64,000 bases of DNA, taken from NCBI GenBank assembly GCA_001825665.1, contig MHXZ01000078.1, positions 5,729 through 69,728 of the forward strand, written 5' to 3'. Below, piece after piece: positions 35,712 through 64,000 of the stretch. Position 1 is the first letter of the stretch. The number at the start of each line of letters is the position of its first letter. The notes under the pieces were generated by a model. The model was not told the DNA's origin, ran no database searches, and saw only the letters and a list, made by a program, of their open reading frames with translations. This stretch comes from Planctomycetes bacterium GWF2_41_51. GTDB taxonomy: Bacteria > Planctomycetota > Phycisphaerae > Sedimentisphaerales > UBA12454. The translations under genes and the position numbers were made by a program.

Positions 35712-36743
35712 TTAATTTACTAACGTCAGTAAATCGTTTTCAATTTGTTTCCAGCTTTGATTCAAATTTATTGTCATAACAGAAATTTTATGTCCAATAA
35801 ATTTATACTGATAGTTATAATTGGAATGCACTGTCGGATATAAAAGTATACCTTCGCAATTATTACATATAAGATCATTTTGATTTTCTTGATTTATTAA
35901 ATAAGAAAACAATTGATATAAATTACTTGAATTAAGTTTTTTTTTGTTATAATTAACTCCGAGAGCTTCTTTGTAATATTTAGCCTCTATAATTATTTTT
36001 TTATACTTTGACTCTAAAGTAATATCTGTCTGCATTTGTGGCAATACTGGCCGAGATTCATCAGTAAGAACATCAAACCGCCAATTTATATTTGTCCGTC
36101 CAACCTTATATAACGGTAAATGCTTTTTGTAAAAATTCCTTATAAACTCTTCGAAAATGGAACGCATTATTGTTTCATCTTGTATGAAATCTTTAAACTT
36201 TTTGCTGCCGTCTCCTTTTTCAAGGAGTAAATTATCAAAAATTAACTCACATACTTTCAAAAGAAAATCATAAAAATGATTGTTTCTATGTAAATTGATC
36301 CGTCTGAATAAATTCTTCGTTAACTTTATTTCGTCAACATAGTGAAGTTTGAAATAAACATTTTTAAGTTCATTATTCACTTCATCAGTGATTCCTTCGC
36401 AATGCATTATGTTTTTAATCGTACTTTTAATTATCATATTATGCAATACATTATGGCTCAATTCATCATATTCACAAAAAACTCTTGGCTGTTTAAAAAA
36501 ATTTCTTTTTAAAGTTGCGCCAAATTTAATCTTTCCTCGTATCATCTGAACTTCTTCAAAATGCTCACAATACCCCCTGTCCAATCCTTTTTTTAATAAT
36601 TGCGATACTCCTTCCGTTAAAACTTTTGCAAACAATAAAGAAACCTCATTTTTTTCAAGCTGTGATACCCTTAACGTTTCACCCTCTTTCAGGCGATTCC
36701 ACGCATAGCATAATAAATAATAAATGTTTTGAATTGGTATCAT
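35712..36743 (-). CDS. mcrC: McrC, nuclease subunit of McrBC type IV restriction system
   Basis: N-terminus NIYYLLCYAW. PD-(D/E)xK-type motif TDITLE...IIIEAKYY. 4-nt overlap with mcrB. Confidence 0.9.
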   Translation of the reverse strand: MIPIQNIYYLLCYAWNRLKEGETLRVSQLEKNEVSLLFAKVLTEGVSQLLKKGLDRGYCEHFEEVQMIRGKIKFGATLKRNFFKQPRVFCEYDELSHNVLHNMIIKSTIKNIMHCEGITDEVNNELKNVYFKLHYVDEIKLTKNLFRRINLHRNNHFYDFLLKVCELIFDNLLLEKGDGSKKFKDFIQDETIMRSIFEEFIRNFYKKHLPLYKVGRTNINWRFDVLTDESRPVLPQMQTDITLESKYKKIIIEAKYYKEALGVNYNKKKLNSSNLYQLFSYLINQENQNDLICNNCEGILLYPTVHSNYNYQYKFIGHKISVMTINLNQSWKQIENDLLTLVN

Positions 36744-38824
36744 TGTTCTAAATTCAAGAGTTTAGTAACTTCTGTTTTGGCTTTATCTAAATCATCGAAC
36801 CAATATGCTTCTAATAAAGGTTTAATCTCATGATTGATAATCATTTTATACCATGATTCATCATAGATTCTCTTTTCTCCATTTGGACAAAAATAACTAT
36901 GCCCTATTTGATAATCAGATCCCAGATTAATTTTATTCTCTGATATACTTTTATTTAGATTTGTCATCTTGGAAATAATCACCTGTATCAGTTCTGCCGA
37001 AAGTTTTCCGTCAATCAGACAATTTTTAAAGCCTTCGGTCTTAAACATAGGAAAAAGATTTATAAAACAAAATCTTCTCCGCAAGGCATAATCAACCATC
37101 GCAAGAGACCTGTCCGCAGTATTCATTGTTCCTATCAGATAAAGGTTTGGTGGTATATGAAACTTTTCGTCAGACGTTTTTGCATAAGCTAATGGCATTT
37201 CATATTTCTCTCCTCTTTTATCGTTTTCGATAAGCATCATCAATTCACCGAATATTTTGCTCAGATTTCCGCGATTGATTTCATCTATTATAAACACATA
37301 TTTATTTCCCAAATCCTCTCGAGCTTTTTTGCAGAATCTAAAAAATACTCCATTTTTTAAATCAAATTTCCCATCATCATTAGGCCGATATCCCTGTATA
37401 AAATCCTCATAAGAATACGATTGATGAAATTGAATCATCTCAACTTTTGTTTTATCTTTATACCCAATCAATGTATATGCAAGCCGTTTCGCTATGAATG
37501 TTTTCCCAACCCCCGGAGGCCCCTGCAAAACTATATTCTTCTTATATTTTAACGCATCAATAATATTATTAAATTCTTCTTCATCTATAAACAATTGAGC
37601 TAATGCATCAGACTTCGTATATTTTATTTTATTTTGTCCACCTGTATACTTGATTATTTGAAGATATTTAGAAAGAAGTGGACTATTTGTAATTTCGGTA
37701 AGAGTTTTATCCCACTCATTAGTTGGAACTGACCATTCTGCTGTTTGCATCCACTTAACTTTTCTTCGATGAAAATGTTCATATGAATTTTTTTCAAATG
37801 TATAAGGCCCAACCACTTCTCCAATACCTAATATTAATGAATTTCCTTTTTTAGCTAAAACTATATCACCCTCTTTTAACATAAAAGCAAAATCATAACA
37901 CGTTTTCGTATTGTTTGTTGGTTCTTGTGTAGGTTTATATTCCTTTTTAATAGCTTCTTTAATTTCTTTTTTTGTTTTATATTGAGTTAGGTCTCCAATT
38001 TCATCCCAGCCTATTGTTGCGATACCATCTTTTTTCCACATTTCCCATAACCCAGCTTGTACCCCAGGTGATATCGCCCAATAATTTGGCTTTTTTTCGG
38101 CTATCCCATCACCGAAATGACTTTCTTCTTCCTGTTCATTGTCAATTCTATATTTATATGCATCATAGCTAATTTCATAAAATTTTTTATCTGCGAATTT
38201 ATCTCTTAGACATTCAAGTAATCCTTGGTAATCCTCAAAACCTTCTGATAAATTTATCTGTCTTAAAAACTCTTTTGTTTCAATTTCTTTATTTTTTAAG
38301 AAAGATAGATTTGTCCCATCAAGAGAAAAATATTTTTGAGGCTTACAAATAAACATCACGGTTGTTAATTTTGCAACTCCCACATTCGGTATTTGTAAAA
38401 CATTATAAAAAAGCTCAGAAGTAATAGTGTCATTATCTAACCGCTTGCTAAATGACCACAGATTTTCCATATATTCAGGTTTGCGATCTTTTTCCCACCC
38501 AAAAAACCAGGTTAGCTGCGCATTAATAGAAGGTGTACCGATTAAATCGGTTGGGACAAATGAATTTAATGCTAAAACTGCTTTAGCTTTTGAACAATAT
38601 CTAAGTCGATTTTCTAAAGTGTTATTCCTGTTAAAGAATGCGATAAAAGTAAGCGGATCTATTTCTCTAAGCAAACCTTTTGTATCATCTGCCAAAAAAT
38701 CTTCGCGTCCACCAGAATCAGAAAAAATTTTATGGAATACTTCGCATAGTGATTTTTTATCATACTTAGTGCAGATTACATTCAGCATCTCTTCGAAAAA
38801 CGGCAGCCATGTAAAATTACTCAT
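36740..38824 (-). CDS. mcrB: McrB-type AAA+ GTPase with non-canonical N-terminal region of about 430 aa
   Basis: GPPGVGKTF, FIIDEINRGN and GTMNTADRS...RRRF motifs. Start taken as ATG 38824 (GAGGGA ribosome-binding site), because the predicted transcription start lies near the track's TTG at 38875. Confidence 0.9.
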   Translation of the reverse strand: MSNFTWLPFFEEMLNVICTKYDKKSLCEVFHKIFSDSGGREDFLADDTKGLLREIDPLTFIAFFNRNNTLENRLRYCSKAKAVLALNSFVPTDLIGTPSINAQLTWFFGWEKDRKPEYMENLWSFSKRLDNDTITSELFYNVLQIPNVGVAKLTTVMFICKPQKYFSLDGTNLSFLKNKEIETKEFLRQINLSEGFEDYQGLLECLRDKFADKKFYEISYDAYKYRIDNEQEEESHFGDGIAEKKPNYWAISPGVQAGLWEMWKKDGIATIGWDEIGDLTQYKTKKEIKEAIKKEYKPTQEPTNNTKTCYDFAFMLKEGDIVLAKKGNSLILGIGEVVGPYTFEKNSYEHFHRRKVKWMQTAEWSVPTNEWDKTLTEITNSPLLSKYLQIIKYTGGQNKIKYTKSDALAQLFIDEEEFNNIIDALKYKKNIVLQGPPGVGKTFIAKRLAYTLIGYKDKTKVEMIQFHQSYSYEDFIQGYRPNDDGKFDLKNGVFFRFCKKAREDLGNKYVFIIDEINRGNLSKIFGELMMLIENDKRGEKYEMPLAYAKTSDEKFHIPPNLYLIGTMNTADRSLAMVDYALRRRFCFINLFPMFKTEGFKNCLIDGKLSAELIQVIISKMTNLNKSISENKINLGSDYQIGHSYFCPNGEKRIYDESWYKMIINHEIKPLLEAYWFDDLDKAKTEVTKLLNLEQ

Positions 38825-38881
38825 CCCTAATCCCTCTCGAAAAAAATAACTTAGTGCCTTAGCCCTTAGTGGCAAAACAAA

Positions 38882-38910
38882 ATTATACTCCCGCCGTCTT
38901 CATATCTCAA
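38882..38910 (-). promoter_or_regulatory. candidate sigma70 promoter for mcrBC
   Basis: On the minus strand: TTGAGA, 17-nt spacer, TATAAT. Confidence 0.55.
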
Positions 38911-39220
38911 CCAATTTTATCGCATAATATTTTGCACCACTAATAAGATATTTACGTACCCATATTTACATCAAACTTGGTTCAAAAACGATACTAAAAC
39001 TACATCAAAATTTTATGATTTATGCAGAAATTAATGCAAATCTTTGAAAATTTGTTCAATTTATTAAAATGTGTTATAAACCATTACTTAAAAGCATCTT
39101 GCGGTTCAAGACTTTTCCAAAATCGCTCATAACTCCTTATTTTACGTTGTTTTTGCCTGCCCGCAACTTTGCTGGTTTTCCCCTTATTATTTCTTCAAAA
39201 ATCAAGATTTTCACAAAAAA

Positions 39221-39308
39221 TGCGCAAGTCGGAGCAAAGCTGAGACCCCCGATTTATTTAGAAAAATTCCACCTCGAAAAAAAATTGGAGGGGGCAAAAA
39301 CTTGCGCA
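39221..39308 (-). other. nested inverted repeats (candidate structured RNA or complex terminator)
   Basis: Outer 9-bp stem TGCGCAAGT / ACTTGCGCA. Inner CCCCC/GGGGG and CCTC/GAGG pairs. On the minus strand the structure is followed by TTTTTTG. Confidence 0.35.
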
Positions 39309-39391
39309 CTTTTGTGCCTTGTGGTACAAAACGAAGTCCCCTTTATAGGCGCAGATTTCCGTTTGGAATTTGTTTCTTGGTTATTGGTAAT

Positions 39392-39985
39392 TTAGATGAT
39401 GGCTGTTGCCTGATTGATAGTCTTGATGATTTCAGAAATGTCCGATGAATCTGTAAGGCATGAATCGTAGCCTTTTTTCAAAACCGCCCCAATTTCATTT
39501 TCTTTAAGACCCTCGGCGAAAGCTATTACCTTTGTGGTTTGAAGTTCCTGGCTGTTCCTGATATTGCTGCAAATATGGTCTGCATCAATACTTGCGGCCA
39601 TAAGATTAATGATAATAACATGTGGTTCAAGTTTTTGTGCTATTAGACCTGCATCGAATCCGCTGCTTGCGGTCTCGACATTGAACGTTGGGATTTTGCG
39701 TAGTTCTGCAGCTGTGTTATTGGCAAGCTCCCAGTCGCTATCAACGATCAGGATTCTTATATTATCCTGTTCGAGATGGTCGGTGGGCATATTATGGCTT
39801 TTCATAAAGCGAATCAGTTCAGAAGCCGGTATTCTCCTGTCTCTGCCGCCCGGAATCCTGTAACCCTTCAACTGCCCGCTATCAAACCATTTAGTAACAG
39901 TTCGCGGCGCAACCTTGCAAATATGGGCAACTTGTCCCGTCGTCAAAATGTCTTTTCGCTTATTATTCATTATCTTATTTGCCAA
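39392..39985 (-). CDS. excisionase-family HTH DNA-binding protein fused to a receiver-like (REC) domain
   Basis: HTH_17-like TTGQVAHICKVAPRTVTKWFDSGQLKGYRIPGGRDRRIP, then IRILIVDSD...HVIIINLM...KVIAFAEG. Confidence 0.75.
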   Translation of the reverse strand: MANKIMNNKRKDILTTGQVAHICKVAPRTVTKWFDSGQLKGYRIPGGRDRRIPASELIRFMKSHNMPTDHLEQDNIRILIVDSDWELANNTAAELRKIPTFNVETASSGFDAGLIAQKLEPHVIIINLMAASIDADHICSNIRNSQELQTTKVIAFAEGLKENEIGAVLKKGYDSCLTDSSDISEIIKTINQATAII

Positions 39986-40118
39986 TCCATTATATTTTTC
40001 GACTTAAAAACGACCCAATTTAACACAACTTCTCCATTTTTCCATATTAAATTTTATCTACTTTAACTCACGTCCGATAACCACGTATATTTTTATGGAA
40101 AATACTTAAAAAATCTAT

Positions 40119-53846: not shown

Positions 53847-54026
53847 TTAGTGAATTCTCGGCCTGTGCAAAATCCCAAATAAAAGGAAAACAACGAACAG
53901 CACCAAAAAAATGTAAAATAGAATTTTCGCCATTCCAGAAGCTGCCGCCGAAATTCCGGTAAAACCAAACAAAGCTGCGATTAATGCGATTACAAAGAAA
54001 ATAATAGCCCAGCGTAAAAGTCCCAT
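53847..54026 (-). CDS. DUF1328 (UPF0391/YtjA-like) small membrane protein, 59 aa (below the ORF-track cutoff)
   Basis: Hand translation: [67 protein letters not shown] ribosome-binding site 5 nt upstream. Confidence 0.75.
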
Positions 54027-54168
54027 TTTAATTCCTTTCCAAAAAATAAGGTTGCATATTATTTTACGAATAAAGGAATTATGAATAATCAGGGTATGTC
54101 CTGAAATGCATATAATAGATTTGAATGCAAATTTATCTCAACGATAGATGCTTCTAATTACAGATATT

Positions 54169-55593
54169 TTAATATCTGTAATGCTCCGATTTAAACGGTC
54201 CTTCAGCCGGAATGCCGAGATATTTTGCCTGTTCAGCAGTCAGGGTGGAAAGACAAGCGTTCAGCCTTCCAAGGTGCAGTCTCGCTACTTCTTCGTCAAG
54301 TTTTTTCGGCAGCGTATAAACTCGTTTCTCAAGGCCGCCTTTTGCAAGCATTATCTGTGCAAGGCTCTGATTTGTGAAACTATTGCTCATTACAAAACTC
54401 GGATGTCCGGTTGCACAGCCAAGATTTACAAGCCTGCCTTCTGCCAGAATTATGATACTCTTGCCGGAAAGTAGGGTCCATTTGTCAACCTGCGGCTTGA
54501 TGTTCACTCTTTTGCATTTTGGATTTTTTTCAATGTATGACATTTGTATTTCATGATCGAAATGCCCAATATTGCAGACAATCGCCTCATCTTTCATTTT
54601 CTCCATATGTTCGCCGCGGATAACATTGCAACAGCCTGTTGCAGTTACGAATATATCGCCCTCTTCTACGACCTGTTCGAGCGTTTTAACTTCGTAACCT
54701 TCCATCGCAGCCTGTAATGCGCAAATCGGGTCAATCTCCGTAATGATTACACGTGCACCGAAGCCCCGCATCGATTGAGCACAGCCTTTGCCAACATCGC
54801 CGTATCCGCAGATGATAACACATTTGCCCGCTACCATAATGTCAGTCGCTCTTTTCAAGCCATCGGCAAGCGATTCCCGGCAGCCGTAAAGATTATCAAA
54901 TTTAGATTTTGTTACCGAATCATTGACGTTAATTGCCGGGAATAAAAGTGTCCCGTCATTTTGCATTTGATAAAGTCTGCCGACACCAGTTGTCGTTTCT
55001 TCCGATACACCTTTAATTGCAGCGGCCATCTTCGTCCAACGCTGCGGATTTTCCGCAACCGATGCTTTCAGACGACTCATAATAATCTGCATTTCATGAT
55101 TATCACTTGGCACATCCAAAAGTGATGGGTCTTTTTCAACCTTCACACCCTGATGGACAAACAGTGTCGCGTCTCCGCCATCATCAACGATTAAATCCGG
55201 CCCGCTGCCATCCGGCCAGATTAGTGCCTGTTCTGTACACCACCAATACTCATCCAGCGATTCACCTTTCCAGGCAAAAACCGCAGCAAGTTTTTCTTTC
55301 GCGATTGCGGCAGCGGCGTGGTCTTGAGTACTGAATATATTACACGATGCCCACCTGATTTTTGCGCCGAGTTCAACCAGCGTTTCAATCAGCATCGCAG
55401 TTTGAATTGTCATGTGGAGCGACCCGCTGATTTTCAAACCCTTCAGCGGCTTGTCTTTGCCATATTTAGCCCGAAGAGACATAAGCCCCGGCATTTCATT
55501 GCGGGCAAGGTTCAATTCTTTTCTGCCCCATTCGGCAAGCGATATATCAGCTACTTTGTACGGTAAAGACGCATCATATTTCATAATACCCAT
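54169..55593 (-). CDS. ahcY: adenosylhomocysteinase
   Basis: [16 protein letters not shown]-terminus and NAD motif [10 protein letters not shown]. Start chosen at ATG 55593 (GGAG 6 nt upstream); the track starts at 55605. Confidence 0.95.
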
Positions 55594-55678
55594 TTTTTGC
55601 TCCATTTCGTTAAATTTACGGATAATATAAGTAATAATCCCTTGTTTCGCAAGTAAACAAAAAAATTAACATACCCCC

Positions 55679-55707
55679 TTGACAAATATGCAATGTTTTG
55701 GTATTAT
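55679..55707 (+). promoter_or_regulatory. near-consensus sigma70 promoter for the trp leader/operon
   Basis: TTGACA (55679-55684), 17-nt spacer, TATTAT (55702-55707). Confidence 0.6.
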
Positions 55708-55718
55708 ATTTAAAGATT

Positions 55719-55778
55719 ATGGCACTAAAACATAAAAATTATTCGTTTGGTTGGTGGCGACTCGTCGAAAATAGCTGA
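55719..55778 (+). CDS. trpL: candidate trp leader peptide, 19 aa: MALKHKNYSFGWWRLVENS
   Basis: ATG 55719, tandem TGG TGG at 55752-55757, TGA at 55776-55778. A terminator follows and trpE lies downstream. Confidence 0.6.
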   Translation: MALKHKNYSFGWWRLVENS

Positions 55779-55830
55779 TGAGCGGTGAGCATAGTCTAAA
55801 TATACAGACATTTTAATACAGAAAAGATTC

Positions 55831-55864
55831 ACGGCTTGTTGGCGACAACAAGCCGTTTTTTTTT
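55831..55864 (+). terminator. intrinsic terminator (attenuator) in the trp leader
   Basis: Perfect 11-bp stem ACGGCTTGTTG / CAACAAGCCGT with a GCGA loop, followed by 8 T. Confidence 0.8.
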
Positions 55865-55951
55865 GTATCCCGTTAGACCTGTTTTGACATGGGAATACAA
55901 AAATATATTCATGGTCTTGCTTAAGATGCAGGGCAGGTCTAACGGGATGTA
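55864..55951 (+). repeat. long inverted repeat (15 perfect bp, about 19 with G-U pairs) with a 52-nt loop, between attenuator and trpE
   Basis: ATCCCGTTAGACCTG (55867-55881) pairs with CAGGTCTAACGGGAT (55934-55948). An inner stem GACATGGG / TTCATGGTC is possible. Confidence 0.6.
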
Positions 55952-55981
55952 TATATTTAAACCTTAATGCGAGAGACAAAA

Positions 55982-57586
55982 ATGAGAGAATTAAATAACA
56001 GGATTGACCAGGCGAAAACAGGACAAATTATCCCGCTGGTCAAAGAAATTGAAGTGGCCGAGCCGGTTGACTTTTTCGCCAAACTAAGCGATTACGGCAG
56101 AAAAAAACATTGCTGCCTGCTCGAATCCAAAGACCATCTTGCCGGCAAAGACGAAGGTGAATTGACCTTTGGAACCGCAAATCCCGCCCTTTACCTTTCC
56201 GGTCAAGGCAGGGATTTTAAGATTATAGCGCTCAGTCCCGTAGGCAGGAGAATGATTAGATATTTTGATACTTCCGCAAGAGAGCGTTTTACTTTCTGTA
56301 AAGAAATAAAATTCGACTCTGACCGAATCACCGGCACTCTAAGTCTCGACCACGGCATCATCGATGAACAGTCCCGCCTGAAATCAATAAACCAGATGGA
56401 TGTTATTCGTGCAGTCAATTTCGCTTTCGAACTTTCCGGCAAACCTTTCCGCGTAACCTGTGGTATGCTCGGCGCATTGAGTTATGATTTTATCGACCAA
56501 TTCGAAAACCTGCCCCCGAACAAATCCAGCCTGATTGATGTACCGGATTACGAACTTTATTTTGCCGATAATATTTTCCTGATGGATCATAAAACCGGCA
56601 AATCTTACATCATTGTCAATGTAATAGTAACAGACGATAACAAAAACGAGATTATGACCGATGCGGAAAATTGTTTTAACACATACTTCAACGCGTTGAA
56701 AACCGAAATGCCCAAACCGGAAAAATATACCGGTACACTGCCGCAGCCCGGCACCGATACTCCGCAAGCTGAATATGAACAAATTGTCGAGACCGCAAAA
56801 AAACATATCGTTGATGGCGACATCTTTCAGGTTGTTCCAAGCAGAACGATAATCGAACCCTGCCCGGATGAACCGCTCGATGTCTATAAAAGACTTCGTA
56901 AACTAAATCCCTCGCCGTATATGTTTTATATCAATACGCCAAATACAGTTTTAACTGGCGCAAGTCCCGAATTGAATCTTCGCGTAAGCGGAACTCAAAA
57001 TCGCCAGGTCGAGATTCGCCCGATTGCAGGAACAAAACCACGCGGCAAAATCGATGGTAAACTTGACCCCGATACAGATTTCAGATACGAAGCGGAATTG
57101 AAACTTGACCGCAAGGAACTTGCCGAGCACATGATGCTCGTTGACCTTGCCCGCAACGATATCGCGCGAGTCGCCAAAAAAGGAACACGCATTGTAAATG
57201 AATTGCTCATCGTTGAAAAATACGAATCGGTTATGCATCTTGTCAGTAATGTAAAAGGAACGCTCGATGATAAACTCGATGCTCTAATTGCGTATCTTGC
57301 GACAATGAATATGGGCACGCTCACAGGCGCGCCGAAAATCGAGGCGATGAAGATCATTCGAAAGCTCGAAAAAAACAAGCGAGGCTATTACGGCGGCGCA
57401 GTTATGTACCTGACAGTTGACGGCCAGTTCGATAGTTGTATAACTATACGTTCATTGCAGATAAAAGACCATACCGCTTATATCAGGGCAGGCGGCGGCG
57501 TTGTTTACGACAGTGTGCCGAAAACCGAATTTGAGGAAACACAGCATAAAGCAAATTCCTGCCTGCGGGCAGTGAGAGGTAATTAA
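55982..57586 (+). CDS. trpE: anthranilate synthase component I
   Basis: Chorismate-binding motifs (LESKD.., GAPK, RGYYGG). ATG 55982 is preferred because of its GAGAGA ribosome-binding site; the track starts at 55967. Confidence 0.93.
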   Translation: MRELNNRIDQAKTGQIIPLVKEIEVAEPVDFFAKLSDYGRKKHCCLLESKDHLAGKDEGELTFGTANPALYLSGQGRDFKIIALSPVGRRMIRYFDTSARERFTFCKEIKFDSDRITGTLSLDHGIIDEQSRLKSINQMDVIRAVNFAFELSGKPFRVTCGMLGALSYDFIDQFENLPPNKSSLIDVPDYELYFADNIFLMDHKTGKSYIIVNVIVTDDNKNEIMTDAENCFNTYFNALKTEMPKPEKYTGTLPQPGTDTPQAEYEQIVETAKKHIVDGDIFQVVPSRTIIEPCPDEPLDVYKRLRKLNPSPYMFYINTPNTVLTGASPELNLRVSGTQNRQVEIRPIAGTKPRGKIDGKLDPDTDFRYEAELKLDRKELAEHMMLVDLARNDIARVAKKGTRIVNELLIVEKYESVMHLVSNVKGTLDDKLDALIAYLATMNMGTLTGAPKIEAMKIIRKLEKNKRGYYGGAVMYLTVDGQFDSCITIRSLQIKDHTAYIRAGGGVVYDSVPKTEFEETQHKANSCLRAVRGN

Positions 57587-57588
57587 TT

Positions 57589-58197
57589 ATGAATACAAAT
57601 AACCCTAAAGTCCTGTTCATAGATAATTTCGATTCCTTTACATACAACCTTGTCGATGATTTCTGTAAAAGAGACTGCATCGCAAAAGTCTATCGCGCAG
57701 ATACACCGCTTGAAACGCTGAAAAAAATCGAACAGGAATTCCAGCCCGACCTGCTCATCATTTCACCCGGGCCGGGTAATCCATCCAGCGCAGGCGTAAC
57801 CCTTGAAGCAATCGGATATTTTAAAGACCGGCTCCCGATTTTCGGAGTTTGTCTCGGCCATCAGGCAATAGTCGAACATTTCGGCGGAGTCGTCGGCCAC
57901 GCTCCGAAAGTTATGCACGGCAAATCATCGAAAGTTACACACAACGAAAAAGGCATCTTCGAAAATGTGGAAAATCCATTACAGGCGGGTCGATACCATA
58001 GTCTCTGTGCCGTTAAAATGCCCGACTGCCTCGAAGTTACAGCTAAATATGAAGATATCGTGATGGGACTCGAGCACAAAGAAAAACCAATTTACGGCGT
58101 TCAGTTCCACCCGGAAAGTATCCTCACACCATCAGGCGGAAAAATCATACAAAATATTTTAAATATTTCTTTAAAGACAAGGAGAGTTGCATTATGA
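57589..58197 (+). CDS. trpG: anthranilate synthase component II (glutamine amidotransferase)
   Basis: GPGNP, GVCLGHQ and HPES triad motifs. Confidence 0.94.
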   Translation: MNTNNPKVLFIDNFDSFTYNLVDDFCKRDCIAKVYRADTPLETLKKIEQEFQPDLLIISPGPGNPSSAGVTLEAIGYFKDRLPIFGVCLGHQAIVEHFGGVVGHAPKVMHGKSSKVTHNEKGIFENVENPLQAGRYHSLCAVKMPDCLEVTAKYEDIVMGLEHKEKPIYGVQFHPESILTPSGGKIIQNILNISLKTRRVAL

Positions 58198-59216
58198 CAA
58201 AAATTACACAATATCTTGAAATACTTCTTGAAGGCGGAGATTTAAAGTACGGCCAGGCAAAAGATTTGCTGGATACCATTTTCAAAGGCGAAGTCGCCGA
58301 AGTTCAAATCGCCGCGTTCCTTGCCGCTATGCGAATGAAAAAAGCTACTGCAAACGAATTTGCCGGTCTGGCGCAATCGCTGCGAAACCACGCCGTAAAA
58401 GTAACCACCAAGATACCATTTATGATAGACACCTGCGGAACAGGCGGCGCACCGCTCAAGACTTTCAATGTTTCAACAGCCGCAGCTTTCGTTGCAGCGG
58501 GAGCCGGAGCATACATCGCCAAACACGGCAACCGCGGCATTACGAGCAAATCAGGCTCTGCCGACGTACTTGAAGCAATGGGCGTAAAAATCGATTGCCC
58601 GCCGGATGTTGTCGCCGAATGTATCGAAAATGCGCACATCGGTTTTATGTACGCTCCAATGCATCATCCCGCGATGAAATTTGTTCAGCCGATAAGAAAA
58701 AGCCTCGATTTCAGAACAGCTTTTAACATTTTAGGCCCACTCGCAAATCCCGCAGGCGCACAGGCGCAGGTTATGGGTGTGCCGGAAGAATCGCTTTTGG
58801 AGAGAATCGCTGATACTTTTGATATTCTCGGCGTTAAACGGGCAATGATTGTGCACGGCAGCGGCCTTGATGAAATCAGCATTACATCTCCTACGAAAGT
58901 GGTAGAAATAAAAGACAGGAAAAAAATATCTTACAAAATTATACCAGATGAATTCGGTATTCAGTCGCCAAAAATGGCCGAACTTGCAGGCAGTAACGCC
59001 GACTATAATGCAGGCCTGATAAAAGATGTTCTTTACAAAAAAAATAAAGGACCCGCCAGAGATATGGTGCTTTTAAACGCCGCAGCCGCTATAATGGTTG
59101 CAGACCTCGCCGCCGATTTGCATCAGGGTTTTAAAAAAGGTGCAGATGCAATCGACTCCGGAGCGGCGGCACAGTGTCTCGAAAAATTGATTGAAATTTC
59201 GAATGGAAAAAAATAA
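58194..59216 (+). CDS. trpD: anthranilate phosphoribosyltransferase
   Basis: DTCGTGG and KHGNRG motifs. ATGA overlap with trpG. Confidence 0.94.
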   Translation: MTKITQYLEILLEGGDLKYGQAKDLLDTIFKGEVAEVQIAAFLAAMRMKKATANEFAGLAQSLRNHAVKVTTKIPFMIDTCGTGGAPLKTFNVSTAAAFVAAGAGAYIAKHGNRGITSKSGSADVLEAMGVKIDCPPDVVAECIENAHIGFMYAPMHHPAMKFVQPIRKSLDFRTAFNILGPLANPAGAQAQVMGVPEESLLERIADTFDILGVKRAMIVHGSGLDEISITSPTKVVEIKDRKKISYKIIPDEFGIQSPKMAELAGSNADYNAGLIKDVLYKKNKGPARDMVLLNAAAAIMVADLAADLHQGFKKGADAIDSGAAAQCLEKLIEISNGKK

Positions 59217-59866
59217 TGATGGTTCCAAAAGTTAAAATTTGCGGTATTACAAACTCCGAGGACGCGATGGCAGCCGTTCAGCTCGGCGCGGATTTACTCG
59301 GATTTAATTTCTATCCCAAAAGTCCGCGTTATATCGACCCTTTAAAAGCGGAAAAAATCATCAGAAAACTTCCAGCGTATGTCGATATTGTCGGGCTGTT
59401 CATAAACGAAGACACGGATTTCATCCGCAAGACTGCAACTCACTTAATGCTCAATTGGGTTCAGCTTCACGGCGACGAAAGTCCTGGCTTCTGCGCATCG
59501 CTCGACAATATGTCCGCAAAAATCATCAAAGCCATTCGCATAAAAGACGGCAAAGATATCGAATACGCCCGCAATTTCGCAACCGATGCTCTTTTACTCG
59601 ATGCATATCATCCTGCATTTTACGGAGGTACAGGCGAAAGGTTTGATTGGAAATTACTGCCGCAGCTCACAGGGCATAAATTCGGAAGAACTTTCCTTGC
59701 AGGCGGAATCACAAGCCAAAATATTTCCGAGGCAATCAGCCAGGGTTTTTACGGAATTGATATTTGCAGCGGCATTGAAAGTACTCCCGGCAAAAAAGAT
59801 CATAAAAAAATGTCAGAGCTTTTCGGCAAAATGAAATCCGTCATTACAGGCAAAGGTGCACAATGA
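59216..59866 (+). CDS. trpF: phosphoribosylanthranilate isomerase (monofunctional)
   Basis: KICGIT N-terminus and LAGGI near the C-terminus; 216 aa, with no fused TrpC domain. Confidence 0.9.
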   Translation: MMVPKVKICGITNSEDAMAAVQLGADLLGFNFYPKSPRYIDPLKAEKIIRKLPAYVDIVGLFINEDTDFIRKTATHLMLNWVQLHGDESPGFCASLDNMSAKIIKAIRIKDGKDIEYARNFATDALLLDAYHPAFYGGTGERFDWKLLPQLTGHKFGRTFLAGGITSQNISEAISQGFYGIDICSGIESTPGKKDHKKMSELFGKMKSVITGKGAQ

Positions 59867-59874
59867 CAAATATT

Positions 59875-59922
59875 TTCTCTGTGTTCTCTGTGGCTAAAAA
59901 TAAAACTAACTCTGTGGCAAAG
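59875..59922 (+). repeat. tandem 9-nt repeat, locus C: TTCTCTGTG TTCTCTGTG GCTAAAAAT ... CTCTGTGGCAAA
   Basis: Read directly in the 64-nt trpF-trpB spacer. Same NNNTCWGYG + A-run architecture as loci A and B. Confidence 0.6.
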
Positions 59923-59930
59923 GTGGTTGA

Positions 59931-61100
59931 ATGAAAAACAGCGGACGTTTTGGACAATTCGGCGGTTTTTATGTTCCCGAAGTTTTAATTCCTGCATTGG
60001 AGGAAATGGAAAACGCCTTTTACAAATTTTACAAAGATGAAAAATTCACCTCCGAACTCGACGTGCTCTACAAAGATTATGCAGGCAGACCGACACCATT
60101 ATATTATGCTACCCGCTTCAGCGAACTTGTCGGTTTCAAAGTTTACATCAAACGCGAAGACCTGCTTCACGGCGGCGCTCACAAAGTAAATAATTGTCTC
60201 GGCCAGGGACTTCTCGCAAAATATATGGGCAAGACGAAACTGATTGCCGAAACGGGCGCCGGCCAGCATGGTCTTGCAACTTCGATGATTGGCGCTCTGT
60301 TCGGAATGCAGACAAAAATTTTTATGGGTGCAATCGACGTTGACCGCCAAAGCGTAAACGTCCATAAGATGCGTCTCTGCGGCGCAGAAGTCATCTCCGT
60401 CAAAGGCGGAACAGAAACTTTAAAAGACGCAATCAATGAAGCGCTTCGCTATTGGACCGCAAACGTTGCCGATACATTTTACTTGTTCGGAACCGCCTGC
60501 GGCCCGCATCCCTATCCGGTCATCGTCAAACATTTTCAATCATGCATCGGAATTGAAGCCCGCAGACAGTGCCTCGAAAAAATCGGAAAACTGCCCGACA
60601 TCGTTACCGCTTGCGTCGGCGGCGGCAGCAATGCAATTGGAATCTTCAGCGCATTTGTCCAAGATAAAAACGTAAAACTTGTCGGCGTCGAACCGGCCGG
60701 AAAAGGAATCGAAACAGGAAAACACGCCGCTCCATTAAACGCCGGAAAAGTCGGCATTCTGCACGGAACCAAAATGTATTTGATGCAGAACAAAGAAGGT
60801 CAGATACTCGATACTGAATCTATTTCAGCAGGACTTGATTATCCCGGCGTCGGCCCCGAACACTGCTATCTTAAAGATATAAACAGAGCGCAATATGTCG
60901 CCGTAAAAGATGAAGATGTTTTGAATATTTTCGACATCTTTACAAAATGCGAAGGCATTCTGCCTGCACTGGAAAGTTCGCATTCACTCGCATGGGTTTA
61001 CAGTCAGAAAGGCAAACTCCCCGTCGACACGACAGTTGTCGTAAATCTTTCCGGCCGAGGCGACAAAGACGTTGACATAGTTGAAAGGAACAGCAAGTGA
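59931..61100 (+). CDS. trpB: tryptophan synthase beta chain
   Basis: HGGAHKVNN (PLP lysine) and GGGSNAIG motifs. Confidence 0.96.
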
Positions 61101-61888
61101 GGACGTATAAAGAAACTTTCGCGCAGCTAAATCATCCCGCATTGATACCGTTTTTTGTTATCGGCGACCCTGATTTTGATACGAGTCTTGAAATTGTAAA
61201 AGCTGCGATTGATGGCGGCGCAGATATTCTCGAACTTGGCATCGCGTTTTCAGACCCGATTGCCGACGGCCCCACAATCCAAAAAGCTGACATTCGCGCA
61301 CTAAATGCAGGCATAACCGTCGAAAAAGCAAAAGATTTCATCGCGAAAGTCAAAGCGTATAAAGATATTCCTATCGGCTTGCTGATGTACTACAATTTGA
61401 TTTTCCAATACGGCGCAGAAAAATTTTTCGCCGATTTCGCAAAAGCCGGCACAAACAGTGTTCTCATCGCGGATTTGAGCATTGATGATGTCGATGAAAT
61501 TTACACCCCCGCTCGCAAAGCAGGCCTCGATACCGTTTTTATGGTAACTCCAAACACCGAAACAGAGCGCGCGAAAAAAATCGCAGAAAAATGCACAGGT
61601 TTTATTTACACCGTTTCGCTGCTTGGCGTAACCGGCGGCCGAGATACTCTTTCTGATATGATTAAACCGTTAATAAGCAAATTAAAATCTATTACTGATG
61701 TTCCGGTTTGCGTAGGCTTCGGCGTAAGTAAACCCGAGCACGCAGTAGAATTGGCAAAAGCCGGCGCCGACGGCGTCATCATCGGCTCAAGAATTGTAAA
61801 AATTATCGAAGATAATCTTAACAATAAAGTCCTTATCGCAAAAGAAGTTACAAAATTCATCAAGGAATTCAAGACTGCTTTATCATAA
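61097..61888 (+). CDS. trpA: tryptophan synthase alpha chain
   Basis: [14 protein letters not shown] and GFGVS motifs. GTG start overlaps the trpB stop (GTGA). Confidence 0.93.
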
Positions 61889-61894
61889 TTTTTC

Positions 61895-61924
61895 TTGAAC
61901 CATCTGAATTGCCGGCCGTATAAT
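61895..61924 (+). promoter_or_regulatory. candidate sigma70 promoter for the downstream membrane protein gene
   Basis: TTGAAC, 18-nt spacer, TATAAT. AAGGAG ribosome-binding site before ATG 61966. Confidence 0.5.
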
Positions 61925-61965
61925 TAGCATTAATGGATTATTCCTTCTAAAATAAGGAGATTAAT

Positions 61966-63171
61966 ATGTCTAAACGTATTGCGGCAATCACGTTCATTTT
62001 TATCTGCACCTCTATCGGATGGGCGATTCTTTCAATCACTGTTTTAGCAAGAACTGAAACGCAGGATTCCAAGTTACGCGATTCAGTAAGTAAACTCTGG
62101 GGTTCACGGCATTTTCAGACCGCCCCGAGCCTTTCCGCAAAACATCCAATAACAACAGACAAAACCGTAGAAAAATTGCCTCTTGAGGCGAGTGATATTA
62201 ATGTTGCGTTTTCTCTTGAACATCGCAAGAAAGGCCTTTTATGGTATTCTACATATCACGTTAAATTTTCAGGTAAATATCTAATCGCGAACAATTCAGA
62301 CCAGGCAGCCACTTTATACTTTGACTTTCCCCTTCCTGCTGAAAGCGCTGTTTACGATAATTTCAGATTTTCTATCGCAGGTGCCGAACTCAAGGAAATC
62401 GCATTCAATAGTAATCGTCTTATAAAAGATATTCGTCTTGAACCGCATCAAACAAAGGAAATAGAAGTATCTTATGATTCTCAGGGTCTTGAAAAATGGT
62501 ATTATAATTTTGGCTATAATGTTAGCCAGGTAAATAATTTCTCACTTGTCCTTAATACCGATTTCAAAGACATAGATTTTCCCGACGATTCAATGGCTCC
62601 GGGAACAAAACAACGCACTGTTGACGGTTGGAAACTGGTATGGAAGTATGACAAAATGCTCACTGATGTTAAGCTCGGTCTGACAATGCCTGAAAAATTA
62701 AATCCCGGCCCATGGGTAACGAAAGTTACTGCCGCCGCTCCTATTTCCCTTTTCTTGTATTTCTTTATTCTGTTTGTACTAACCACGGTCAAAAAAATAA
62801 AAATACATCCCATGAATTATTTCTTTATTGGCGCCGCCTTTTTCAGCTTTCATCTTTTGCTGTCTTACCTGATTGACCATATATCTGTTCATTGGGCTTT
62901 TTGGATAAGCTCTGCTGTTTCTGTGTTTCTTGTGATTTCGTATATGAGGCTTGTTGTCGGTTTGAAATTTGCTTTTGTGGAAATTGCCCTGACCCAGCTT
63001 ATTTATCTTATATTCTTCTCTTATACCTTTTTCTTCAAAGGCTATACAGGCCTTACTATAACAATCCTGTGCATTGGTACTTTATTTATTGTTATGCAGT
63101 TTACAGGTAAAGTTGATTGGGAAAAACTTTTCCAAAAACAGCCTCCGCCTCTGCCGCAGCAGGAAAAATAA
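61966..63171 (+). CDS. inner-membrane protein with CreD-like topology
   Basis: N-terminal TM helix, a periplasmic domain of about 230 aa starting ..SVSKLWGS.., then 4-5 C-terminal TM helices. The family assignment is tentative. Confidence 0.45.
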   Translation: MSKRIAAITFIFICTSIGWAILSITVLARTETQDSKLRDSVSKLWGSRHFQTAPSLSAKHPITTDKTVEKLPLEASDINVAFSLEHRKKGLLWYSTYHVKFSGKYLIANNSDQAATLYFDFPLPAESAVYDNFRFSIAGAELKEIAFNSNRLIKDIRLEPHQTKEIEVSYDSQGLEKWYYNFGYNVSQVNNFSLVLNTDFKDIDFPDDSMAPGTKQRTVDGWKLVWKYDKMLTDVKLGLTMPEKLNPGPWVTKVTAAAPISLFLYFFILFVLTTVKKIKIHPMNYFFIGAAFFSFHLLLSYLIDHISVHWAFWISSAVSVFLVISYMRLVVGLKFAFVEIALTQLIYLIFFSYTFFFKGYTGLTITILCIGTLFIVMQFTGKVDWEKLFQKQPPPLPQQEK

Positions 63172-63222
63172 AATAATTCGGCGCAGCCGTTCCGCAATTT
63201 TGCATTTTAATTTTGATTTTCG

Positions 63223-64000
63223 TTATAACAGGTGCTGTTCGATAAAGCTCGTGTCCACTTTGTTCTGCAGATAGAGATTATGCGAAAGAATTTTCAAACA
63301 AGCCGGGATTGTGGTTTTAATCGGCCCAATACGGAACTCATTTAAAGCACGTTTCATCGTAATTATTGCTTCTTCTCTTGTTGGTCTGTGTACGATCAAT
63401 TTTGCAATCATCGAATCGTAATTCGGCGATATCATCGAACCCTGGAAAAGATGTGTATCGACGCGCACGCCCATCCCGCCCGGCAAAATAAATCTATCAA
63501 CCCTGCCTGGACAAGGTGAAAAATTCCTGTCCGGGTCTTCAGCGTTAATTCTGCATTCTATAGCAACGCCTTTGTGCGTAATATCTTTTTGCTTCATGTT
63601 CAAATTCTGGCCTGAAGCAATTTTGAGCTGCCATTTAATCAAATCGATTCCCGTAACCATTTCCGAAACAGGATGTTCGACCTGGATTCTTGTATTAACT
63701 TCTATAAAATAAAATCTCTTGTCGCGGTCGAGCAAAAATTCAACTGTTGCCGCGTTTTCATATTTCGCTTCCTTGATTACCTTCAGCGCCGATTTACACA
63801 ACTCTTCCCGAGTCTTCTCATCAAGCACCGGGCATGGCGATTCTTCAATCATTTTCTGGTGTCGTCTCTGAATCGAACAATCACGTTCGAAAAAGTGAAG
63901 CGTATTTCCAGTCTTGTCCGCCATTACCTGAACTTCAACGTGCCGCGGCTCGACAATATATTTTTCCAGATAAACCGTACTGTTCTTAAATGCGATTTCT
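63223..64000 (-). CDS. accC: acetyl-CoA carboxylase biotin carboxylase subunit, C-terminal part (gene continues past the window end)
   Basis: ERDCSIQRRHQKMIEESP and EVNTRIQVEHPVSE motifs. The frame stays open to base 64000 (..YLEKYIVEPRHVEVQV upstream of the track's Met). Confidence 0.92.
   Translation of the reverse strand, partial: EIAFKNSTVYLEKYIVEPRHVEVQVMADKTGNTLHFFERDCSIQRRHQKMIEESPCPVLDEKTREELCKSALKVIKEAKYENAATVEFLLDRDKRFYFIEVNTRIQVEHPVSEMVTGIDLIKWQLKIASGQNLNMKQKDITHKGVAIECRINAEDPDRNFSPCPGRVDRFILPGGMGVRVDTHLFQGSMISPNYDSMIAKLIVHRPTREEAIITMKRALNEFRIGPIKTTIPACLKILSHNLYLQNKVDTSFIEQHLL

Follow-up and report, generated by a model that had tools for sequence, protein, structure and literature searches.

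A probable leader-peptide attenuator upstream of trpE in Phycisphaerae planctomycetes

Directly upstream of trpE, and in the same orientation, a 64,000-nucleotide (nt) stretch of DNA from Planctomycetes bacterium GWF2_41_51 (the window, from whose first letter all positions are counted) carries an element that is very probably a ribosome-mediated, leader-peptide-dependent transcription attenuator. We put the probability of this reading, in which the element controls the trpEGDFBA operon of a planctomycete of the class Phycisphaerae, at roughly 85%. The reading builds on the sequence elements themselves, on their conservation among relatives, on compensatory changes in three helices and on the energetics and geometry of the switch. 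A preliminary description, made from the letters of this DNA alone, had proposed the classical trpL logic for the site, and every component of that logic is found here and is conserved throughout 80 related genomes.

In the mechanism that we propose, a strong sigma-70-type promoter would start the RNA 4–6 nt ahead of an AUG that has no Shine-Dalgarno (SD) sequence, and a ribosome would load at this near-leaderless 5' end and translate a leader of 19 codons. When charged tRNA-Trp is plentiful, the ribosome would reach the UGA stop codon and mask segment 2 of the leader RNA (55774–55790). Segment 3 would then pair with segment 4 to form a terminator, and RNA polymerase would stop at about 55864. 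When tRNA-Trp is scarce, the ribosome would stall on UGG UGG (55752–55757), a position from which it would cover segment 1 only. Segment 2 could then pair with segment 3 once the latter has been transcribed, the terminator would be blocked, and polymerase would read through into trpE. With no ribosome on the RNA, the 1:2 hairpin could form first and termination would follow.

The promoter on the plus strand consists of a −35 hexamer, TTGACA (55679–55684), a 17-nt spacer and an extended −10 element, TGgTATTAT (55699–55707, with the TG at 55699–55700 and the hexamer at 55702–55707). It matches 11 of 12 consensus positions in addition to the TG and is the top site in a consensus scan of 10 kb (54000–64000). 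Judging from promoter geometry, transcription is predicted to start at 55713–55715 on the plus strand, which would leave a near-leaderless RNA with a 5' untranslated region (UTR) of 4–6 nt. The trpL-like leader open reading frame (ORF; 55719–55778, plus strand) begins with the ATG at 55719, encodes the 19-residue peptide MALKHKNYSFGWWRLVENS and ends with a UGA at 55776–55778. Its tandem Trp codons, UGG UGG, which would be the regulatory ones, lie at 55752–55757 and fall in nearly invariant columns of our alignment of relatives (A1, below).

All the hairpin-forming segments lie on the plus strand. Segment 1 (55759–55767) is the 5' arm of the 1:2 hairpin, a putative anti-antiterminator or pause hairpin, in which a helix of 7 base pairs (bp) joins CUCGUCG (55761–55767) to UGAUGAG (55776–55782) and is extended by two outer pairs, for a folding energy of −10.0 kcal/mol. 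Segment 2 includes the leader stop codon and has two possible partners, segment 1 and segment 3 (55826–55843), the latter of which holds the 5' arm of the terminator. The intrinsic terminator, 3:4 (55831–55864), has an 11-bp stem, ACGGCUUGUUG/CAACAAGCCGU (55831–55841/55846–55856), closed by a GCGA loop and followed by eight further U to 55864. It has an energy of −18.0 to −18.6 kcal/mol and ranks first among the terminator-like sites in a scan of 54000–64000; 118 nt separate it from the trpE ATG at 55982.

The antiterminator, 2:3, pairs 55774–55790 with 55826–55843 through 16 bp with two interruptions, and reaches −19.6 kcal/mol as a folded domain and −20.6 kcal/mol as a duplex. Shuffled versions of segment 2 average −9.4 ± 2.7 kcal/mol, and 0.1% of them attain the observed value. 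The best complement of the terminator 5' arm anywhere within 55620–55805 begins at 55770–55774. The leader as a whole folds to −48.8 kcal/mol (z = −5.55), a value that none of 200 shuffles equals. By these predicted energies, antiterminator and terminator are about equal in stability (about −20 versus about −18 kcal/mol).

Most of what the preliminary description had read at this site stands unchanged. This applies to its TTGACA-17-TATTAT promoter at 55679–55707, to which the TG extension can be added; to the ATG at 55719, the 19-codon ORF, the Trp codons and the stop; to the 11-bp stem with its GCGA loop and U8 at 55831–55864, placed about 120 nt from trpE; and to the 1:2 pairing of CUCGUC with GAUGAG, which forms part of the longer helix given above. 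The antiterminator is present, conserved and covarying as had been suggested, and extends further than the segment 55774–55786 assigned to it. It had also been asked whether the antiterminator might be far less stable than competing structures; its folding energy is not the weaker one.

To follow the element beyond the window, we took the locus around the TrpE relative from each of 80 species-level genomes, with TrpE at least 68% identical, so that the family is seen within that range. A protein search aimed at more distant TrpE lineages gave only matches of at least 69% identity. The closest TrpE genes (68–89% identical) come from metagenome-assembled genomes or isolates labelled Planctomycetota, Phycisphaerae, Sedimentisphaerales or Anaerohalosphaeraceae. 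A Trp-rich leader region is found in all 80 relatives, and in 78 of them it lies in an intact short ORF of 14–27 codons with in-frame WW or WWW. The exceptions are locus L035, with an in-frame stop ahead of its WWW, and L065, in which the run reads WIWCW. Conservation of the Trp-codon ORF had been named beforehand as a point on which the attenuator proposal could fall, and the ORF is conserved. Its reading frame is maintained across insertions and deletions, including a 27-nt insertion in L012 and L017. A strict scan recovers the terminator hairpin with a run of 6–9 T in 76 of 79 relatives, and in the remaining three it is visible by eye. In many loci, the terminator ends just 21–60 nt before the trpE ATG, which leaves no space for a separate promoter.

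The 27-nt insert of L012 and L017 sits in frame between the FG and WW codons, can itself fold as a hairpin (CTAAGG...CCTTAG) and adds nine residues (CPLRDALGQ) to the leader.

Compensatory changes were counted per column pair in alignment A1, which holds 79 sequences and runs from 9 nt ahead of the Trp run to the end of the U-tract. In the terminator helix 3:4, pairing is kept in 91.2% of cells, and both partners have changed in 9 of 12 pairs; in the 1:2 helix the corresponding figures are 81.8% and 8 of 10. Together, the two helices give a covariation score of 0.377 against 0.234 for shuffled alignments (0 of 500 reach the observed score), and controls with slid positions yield at most 0.108. 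The core of the antiterminator 2:3 is paired in 92.1% of cells across the 79 sequences, with changes on both sides in 7 of 9 pairs. Its score of 0.304 compares with 0.250 for shuffles (again 0 of 500), and slid controls stay at or below 0.104. RNAalifold, given the alignment alone, arrives at helices 1:2 and 3:4 in the columns counted here.

The covariation extends into the coding part of the leader. Column 24, a third codon position downstream of the Trp run, covaries with the position it pairs with (UA in 42 sequences, UG in 22, CG in 9). The residues that follow the Trp run are often P-V/E/A-G in relatives, and the clade of the window has RLVENS. Taken together, the covariation and the differing peptide indicate that the constraint downstream of the Trp codons acts on the RNA and not on the peptide.

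From A1 we built a covariance model, which finds one copy in each of the 80 loci, two of which were not in the seed, always upstream of trpE and with scores of 45–108 bits. In the 64-kb window it reports a single site (83.4 bits, E = 1e-13). No second copy of the attenuator was found in the window or in the flanks (±3 kb) of relatives, where minus-strand matches are palindromic terminators.

In most relatives, segments 1 and 2 closely resemble the arms of the terminator: there is near identity between segment 1 (GGCCUGU) and the 5' arm (A1 columns 20–25 and 107–112), and likewise between segment 2 (ACAGGY) and the 3' arm. At the sequence level, the 1:2 hairpin has the look of a terminator hairpin copied and since degenerated, and an attenuator could originate by duplication of a terminator. 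With such an origin, the complementarity between segments 2 and 3 would arise automatically.

For the geometry of the switch, the ribosome was modelled as a 28-nt footprint on nascent RNA that ended at the terminator loop. With its A site on one or the other Trp codon, the footprint covers segment 1, and the antiterminator 55774–55790/55826–55843 forms in the nascent RNA of the window; placed at the stop codon, it covers segment 2. Upstream pairing engages 11 nt of the terminator arm in the Trp-stalled model versus none with the footprint at the stop codon. Among the relatives, the Trp-stalled model yields the antiterminator in 78 of 79 loci.

Four points weigh against the attenuator reading. 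With the footprint at the stop codon, this crude model leaves some upstream pairing of the terminator arm in 32 of 79 relatives. The window leader has two Trp codons only, and most relatives have three. At equilibrium on the full-length leader with a stalled ribosome, the terminator state stays the minimum free energy structure (−29.9 versus −21.4 kcal/mol), so that the antiterminator must win kinetically. Finally, where transcription begins, that the leader is translated and that it responds to tryptophan are all inferred. A kinetic win is accepted for the antiterminator of the E. coli trp operon.

As for RNA data, a sludge RNA run has 4% of words in common and gives two short contigs, both inside trpE. 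RNA runs associated with groundwater are tiny SOLiD libraries. The runs of the cultured relative L077 that are labelled RNA-Seq yield either long, DNA-like contigs or sparse contigs that also span the promoter region.

The predicted near-leaderless start is shared by the relatives. Over the 77 loci with a recognisable −35 element, TTGAC(A) stands at an equal distance in 76, and the TG of the extended −10 element is present in 53. The distance from the end of the −10 element to the leader ATG is 11 nt in the window and 6–13 nt (mode 9) in relatives, so that promoter geometry predicts a 5' UTR of 0–6 nt in 76 of the 77 loci. We also scored the 17 nt preceding the leader ATG and the trpE ATG for anti-SD complementarity: the median duplex energy is −2.2 kcal/mol at the leader versus −4.05 kcal/mol at trpE (Mann-Whitney p = 7e-15), in line with a leader ATG that lacks an SD sequence and a trpE ATG that has one. 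Because promoter geometry and the absence of an SD sequence recur across relatives, leaderless or near-leaderless translation of the leader appears, as far as genome sequences can tell, to be a conserved property and not an accident of the window. The SD-less start had been flagged as an oddity in the preliminary description. It is real and conserved, and it is not new, given the leaders of Sinorhizobium meliloti (PMC6614838) and Deinococcus deserti (PMC4007540).

Two palindromic features were noted around the start site. An inverted repeat in the window (55693–55702/55724–55733) was considered as a candidate operator and rejected, as the closest relatives, L001 and L002, have not kept it. A different DNA palindrome, exemplified by GTTTCTATGAATAGAAAC, has its centre at the leader ATG and predicted start in a clade whose leaders begin M-N/D/S/H-R-N (L023–L027, L030, L032, L033, L036, L038, L041, L043, L071 and L077), and is absent from the clade of the window. 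Half of it would lie outside the transcript, and the palindrome could therefore be the operator of a repressor that adds a second level of control to attenuation.

We next consider readings that would add to or replace attenuation. The cis attenuator could be combined with a trans role of the released leader RNA (~150 nt) and/or peptide, for instance in coordinating an unlinked trpC. In line with this idea, trpC is missing from the operon at 55982–61888, and the rhizobial rnTrpL/peTrpL provides a precedent, with a leaderless trpL upstream of trpE(G) and the other trp genes unlinked (PMC6614838, PMC7298713). However, no target was identified, as trpC is also not among the ten other window ORFs scanned. 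Moreover, apart from the Trp run the peptide differs widely from clade to clade, which speaks against a conserved function of the peptide. We regard a trans role as rather unlikely.

That promoter, ORF and terminator form a self-contained unit would also suit an independent gene for a small protein or small RNA that merely neighbours trpE, with trpE served by a promoter of its own and not controlled through read-through. Sinorhizobium attenuator RNAs can indeed act in trans (PMC6614838), and a TTGACA occurs at 55884–55889, within the 118-nt spacer of the window. This hexamer, however, sits in a mobile inverted-repeat insert that is absent from many relatives; no plus-strand promoter site with at least 9 of 12 matches exists between 55865 and 55982; and in most relatives the spacer of 21–60 nt noted above is too short for a promoter. 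The covariance model finds the element always linked to trpE. An independent gene would further leave the conserved, covarying antiterminator and the nearly invariant Trp codons unexplained, and we consider this explanation very improbable.

TRAP targets carry 9–11 (G/U)AG triplets, spaced 2–3 nt apart and overlapping the antiterminator. A switch worked in trans by a TRAP-like protein, by uncharged tRNA-Trp through a T-box or by a small molecule through a riboswitch, with the ORF incidental, is least probable of all: such devices are known alternatives for Firmicutes trp operons (PMC6614838) and four (G/U)AG triplets do occur in 55773–55794, but these are fewer than in TRAP targets and not conserved in A1, no T-box (RF00230) or any riboswitch matches 55000–56500 at E up to 10 or nine relatives at E up to 1, the nearly invariant Trp codons are in frame with a promoter-proximal AUG through insertions and deletions, and the stop codon is always placed so that a terminating ribosome would mask segment 2.

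The genomic setting agrees with a leader of the trp operon. The operon trpE-trpG-trpD-trpF-trpB-trpA (55982–61888, plus strand) was identified by NCBIfam matches and has separate trpG and trpD genes. The TrpE start agrees with that of relatives from residue 1, and the protein, which is of the long type, matches NF010079 and is 43% identical to E. coli TrpE. Upstream lies ahcY (adenosylhomocysteinase), on the minus strand and divergent from trpE, so the terminator cannot be attributed to an upstream gene. Public gene calls on the source contig contain no gene in the interval between ahcY and trpE, so the element is unannotated, as the preliminary description had supposed. The window belongs to a contig from a groundwater metagenome, is assigned to Planctomycetota, Phycisphaerae/Sedimentisphaerales, and its sequence is found in two groundwater metagenome DNA runs.

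The post-terminator leader, outside the conserved attenuator, is a site of insertions. The insert of the window (55867–55948, no strand assigned) lies between terminator and trpE and has perfect 15-nt inverted-repeat arms, ATCCCGTTAGACCTG/CAGGTCTAACGGGAT, with 52 nt between them. This insert is found in the window, L001, L003, L007 and L011 and is absent in L002 and L004–L006; further copies occur elsewhere in L007, L011 and L018. Comparison of the sister loci L007 (filled) and L006 (empty) reveals a 6-bp duplication, ATGTAT, at the insertion point. From its sequence, the insert looks like a small dispersed element, resembling a miniature inverted-repeat transposable element or a repetitive extragenic palindromic element, that favours the post-terminator spot. 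In L019, this spot is occupied by another inverted repeat (CCCGCACCTTCT...), and a second small palindromic repeat, GTTTAGCCGTCGCC-n-GGCGACG, is present in the terminator-trpE spacer of L007, L014, L016 and L017.

Two further observations concern the surroundings. In L024 (Anaerohalosphaeraceae), about 250 nt upstream of the trp leader, positions 2570–2616 match the Rfam Acido-Lenti-1 RNA at 41.8 bits versus a gathering score of 37 bits. In the window, the GC content dips to 0.337 at 36001–40000 versus about 0.41–0.47 elsewhere, in a zone that contains large minus-strand ORFs (35712–36743 and 36740–38875) and may be a foreign island.

The cell plan of Planctomycetota was long debated. The leader provides indirect evidence for transcription-translation coupling and for leaderless initiation in a poorly studied, mostly uncultured lineage. 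A broader view, that Phycisphaerae rely on tight coupling of RNA polymerase and ribosome and on ribosome loading at a 5'-terminal AUG, with a possible trans role of the leader RNA or peptide in addition, strikes us as improbable. Of more immediate use is the RNA family itself, which is absent from Rfam and well supported by 80 members, three covarying helices and a covariance model. With the model, trp regulation could be annotated in genomes of Sedimentisphaerales and Anaerohalosphaeraceae, in which this leader has so far gone unannotated.

The attenuator reading extends leader-peptide attenuation to Planctomycetota. When Naville and Gautheret surveyed such systems in 2010, they were known only in Proteobacteria and Actinobacteria, to which the survey itself added Firmicutes (PMC2965389); Deinococcus joined later (PMC4007540). 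The preliminary description had judged the lineage not to be proteobacterial, correctly so, and had suspected that the mechanism was undescribed in it. In the searchable literature, we found no earlier description of a trp attenuator or leader peptide in Planctomycetota, and a generic statistic on short upstream ORFs (PMC4833913) was the only related item for Planctomycetes, Planctomycetota or Phycisphaerae. Leader-peptide attenuation thus appears to be undescribed so far in this phylum. The mechanism itself is textbook knowledge and not surprising, and its understanding is unchanged by our findings.

Comparing the planctomycete leader with trpL of E. coli reveals a shared architecture: both have a leader ORF with tandem Trp codons, the pairings 1:2, 2:3 and 3:4 with a U-tract, and a position directly upstream of trpE. 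Both also contain the local string G-W-W-R (GGU UGG UGG CGN). Homology, which this string and the proteobacterial-type TrpE might suggest, is unsupported. The Rfam model Trp_leader (RF00513) scores 22.9 bits in the window (E = 0.08), below its gathering score of 41, and has no match in nine relatives at E up to 1. Reciprocally, our model gives E. coli trpL 22.1 bits versus 45–108 for members of the family and aligns only GGUUGGUGGCG and the terminator. Both scores, of about 22 bits, reflect Trp codons and a generic terminator only. The sub-threshold Trp_leader score thus points to a separate RNA family that would operate in the classical way.

There are also differences between the two systems. 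Whereas E. coli trpL has a 5' UTR with an SD sequence, the planctomycete leader is predicted to be near-leaderless and has none. The planctomycete operon has the order E-G-D-F-B-A, with separate trpG and trpD and without trpC, and its antiterminator is predicted to be about as stable as the terminator.

The overall arrangement is reminiscent of trpL/rnTrpL of S. meliloti, where a leaderless trp leader likewise lies upstream of trpE(G), with the other trp genes unlinked. This leader encodes a WWW-type peptide and mediates ribosome-dependent attenuation of anthranilate synthase (PMC6614838). The likeness is one of description. S. meliloti belongs to the Alphaproteobacteria, trans functions have been shown there, and the operon downstream of the planctomycete leader is larger.

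Similar leaders are found in two further groups. In D. deserti, the transcript of the trpEGD leader peptide starts 1 nt upstream of the leader start codon and is therefore leaderless (PMC4007540), and trp leaders of actinobacteria (Corynebacterium, Streptomyces) are leader-peptide attenuators outside the Proteobacteria (PMC1262725). For all of them, as for the planctomycete leader, the common trait is attenuation of trp genes through a leader peptide, either predicted or demonstrated, whereas they belong to other phyla and constitute independent RNA families.

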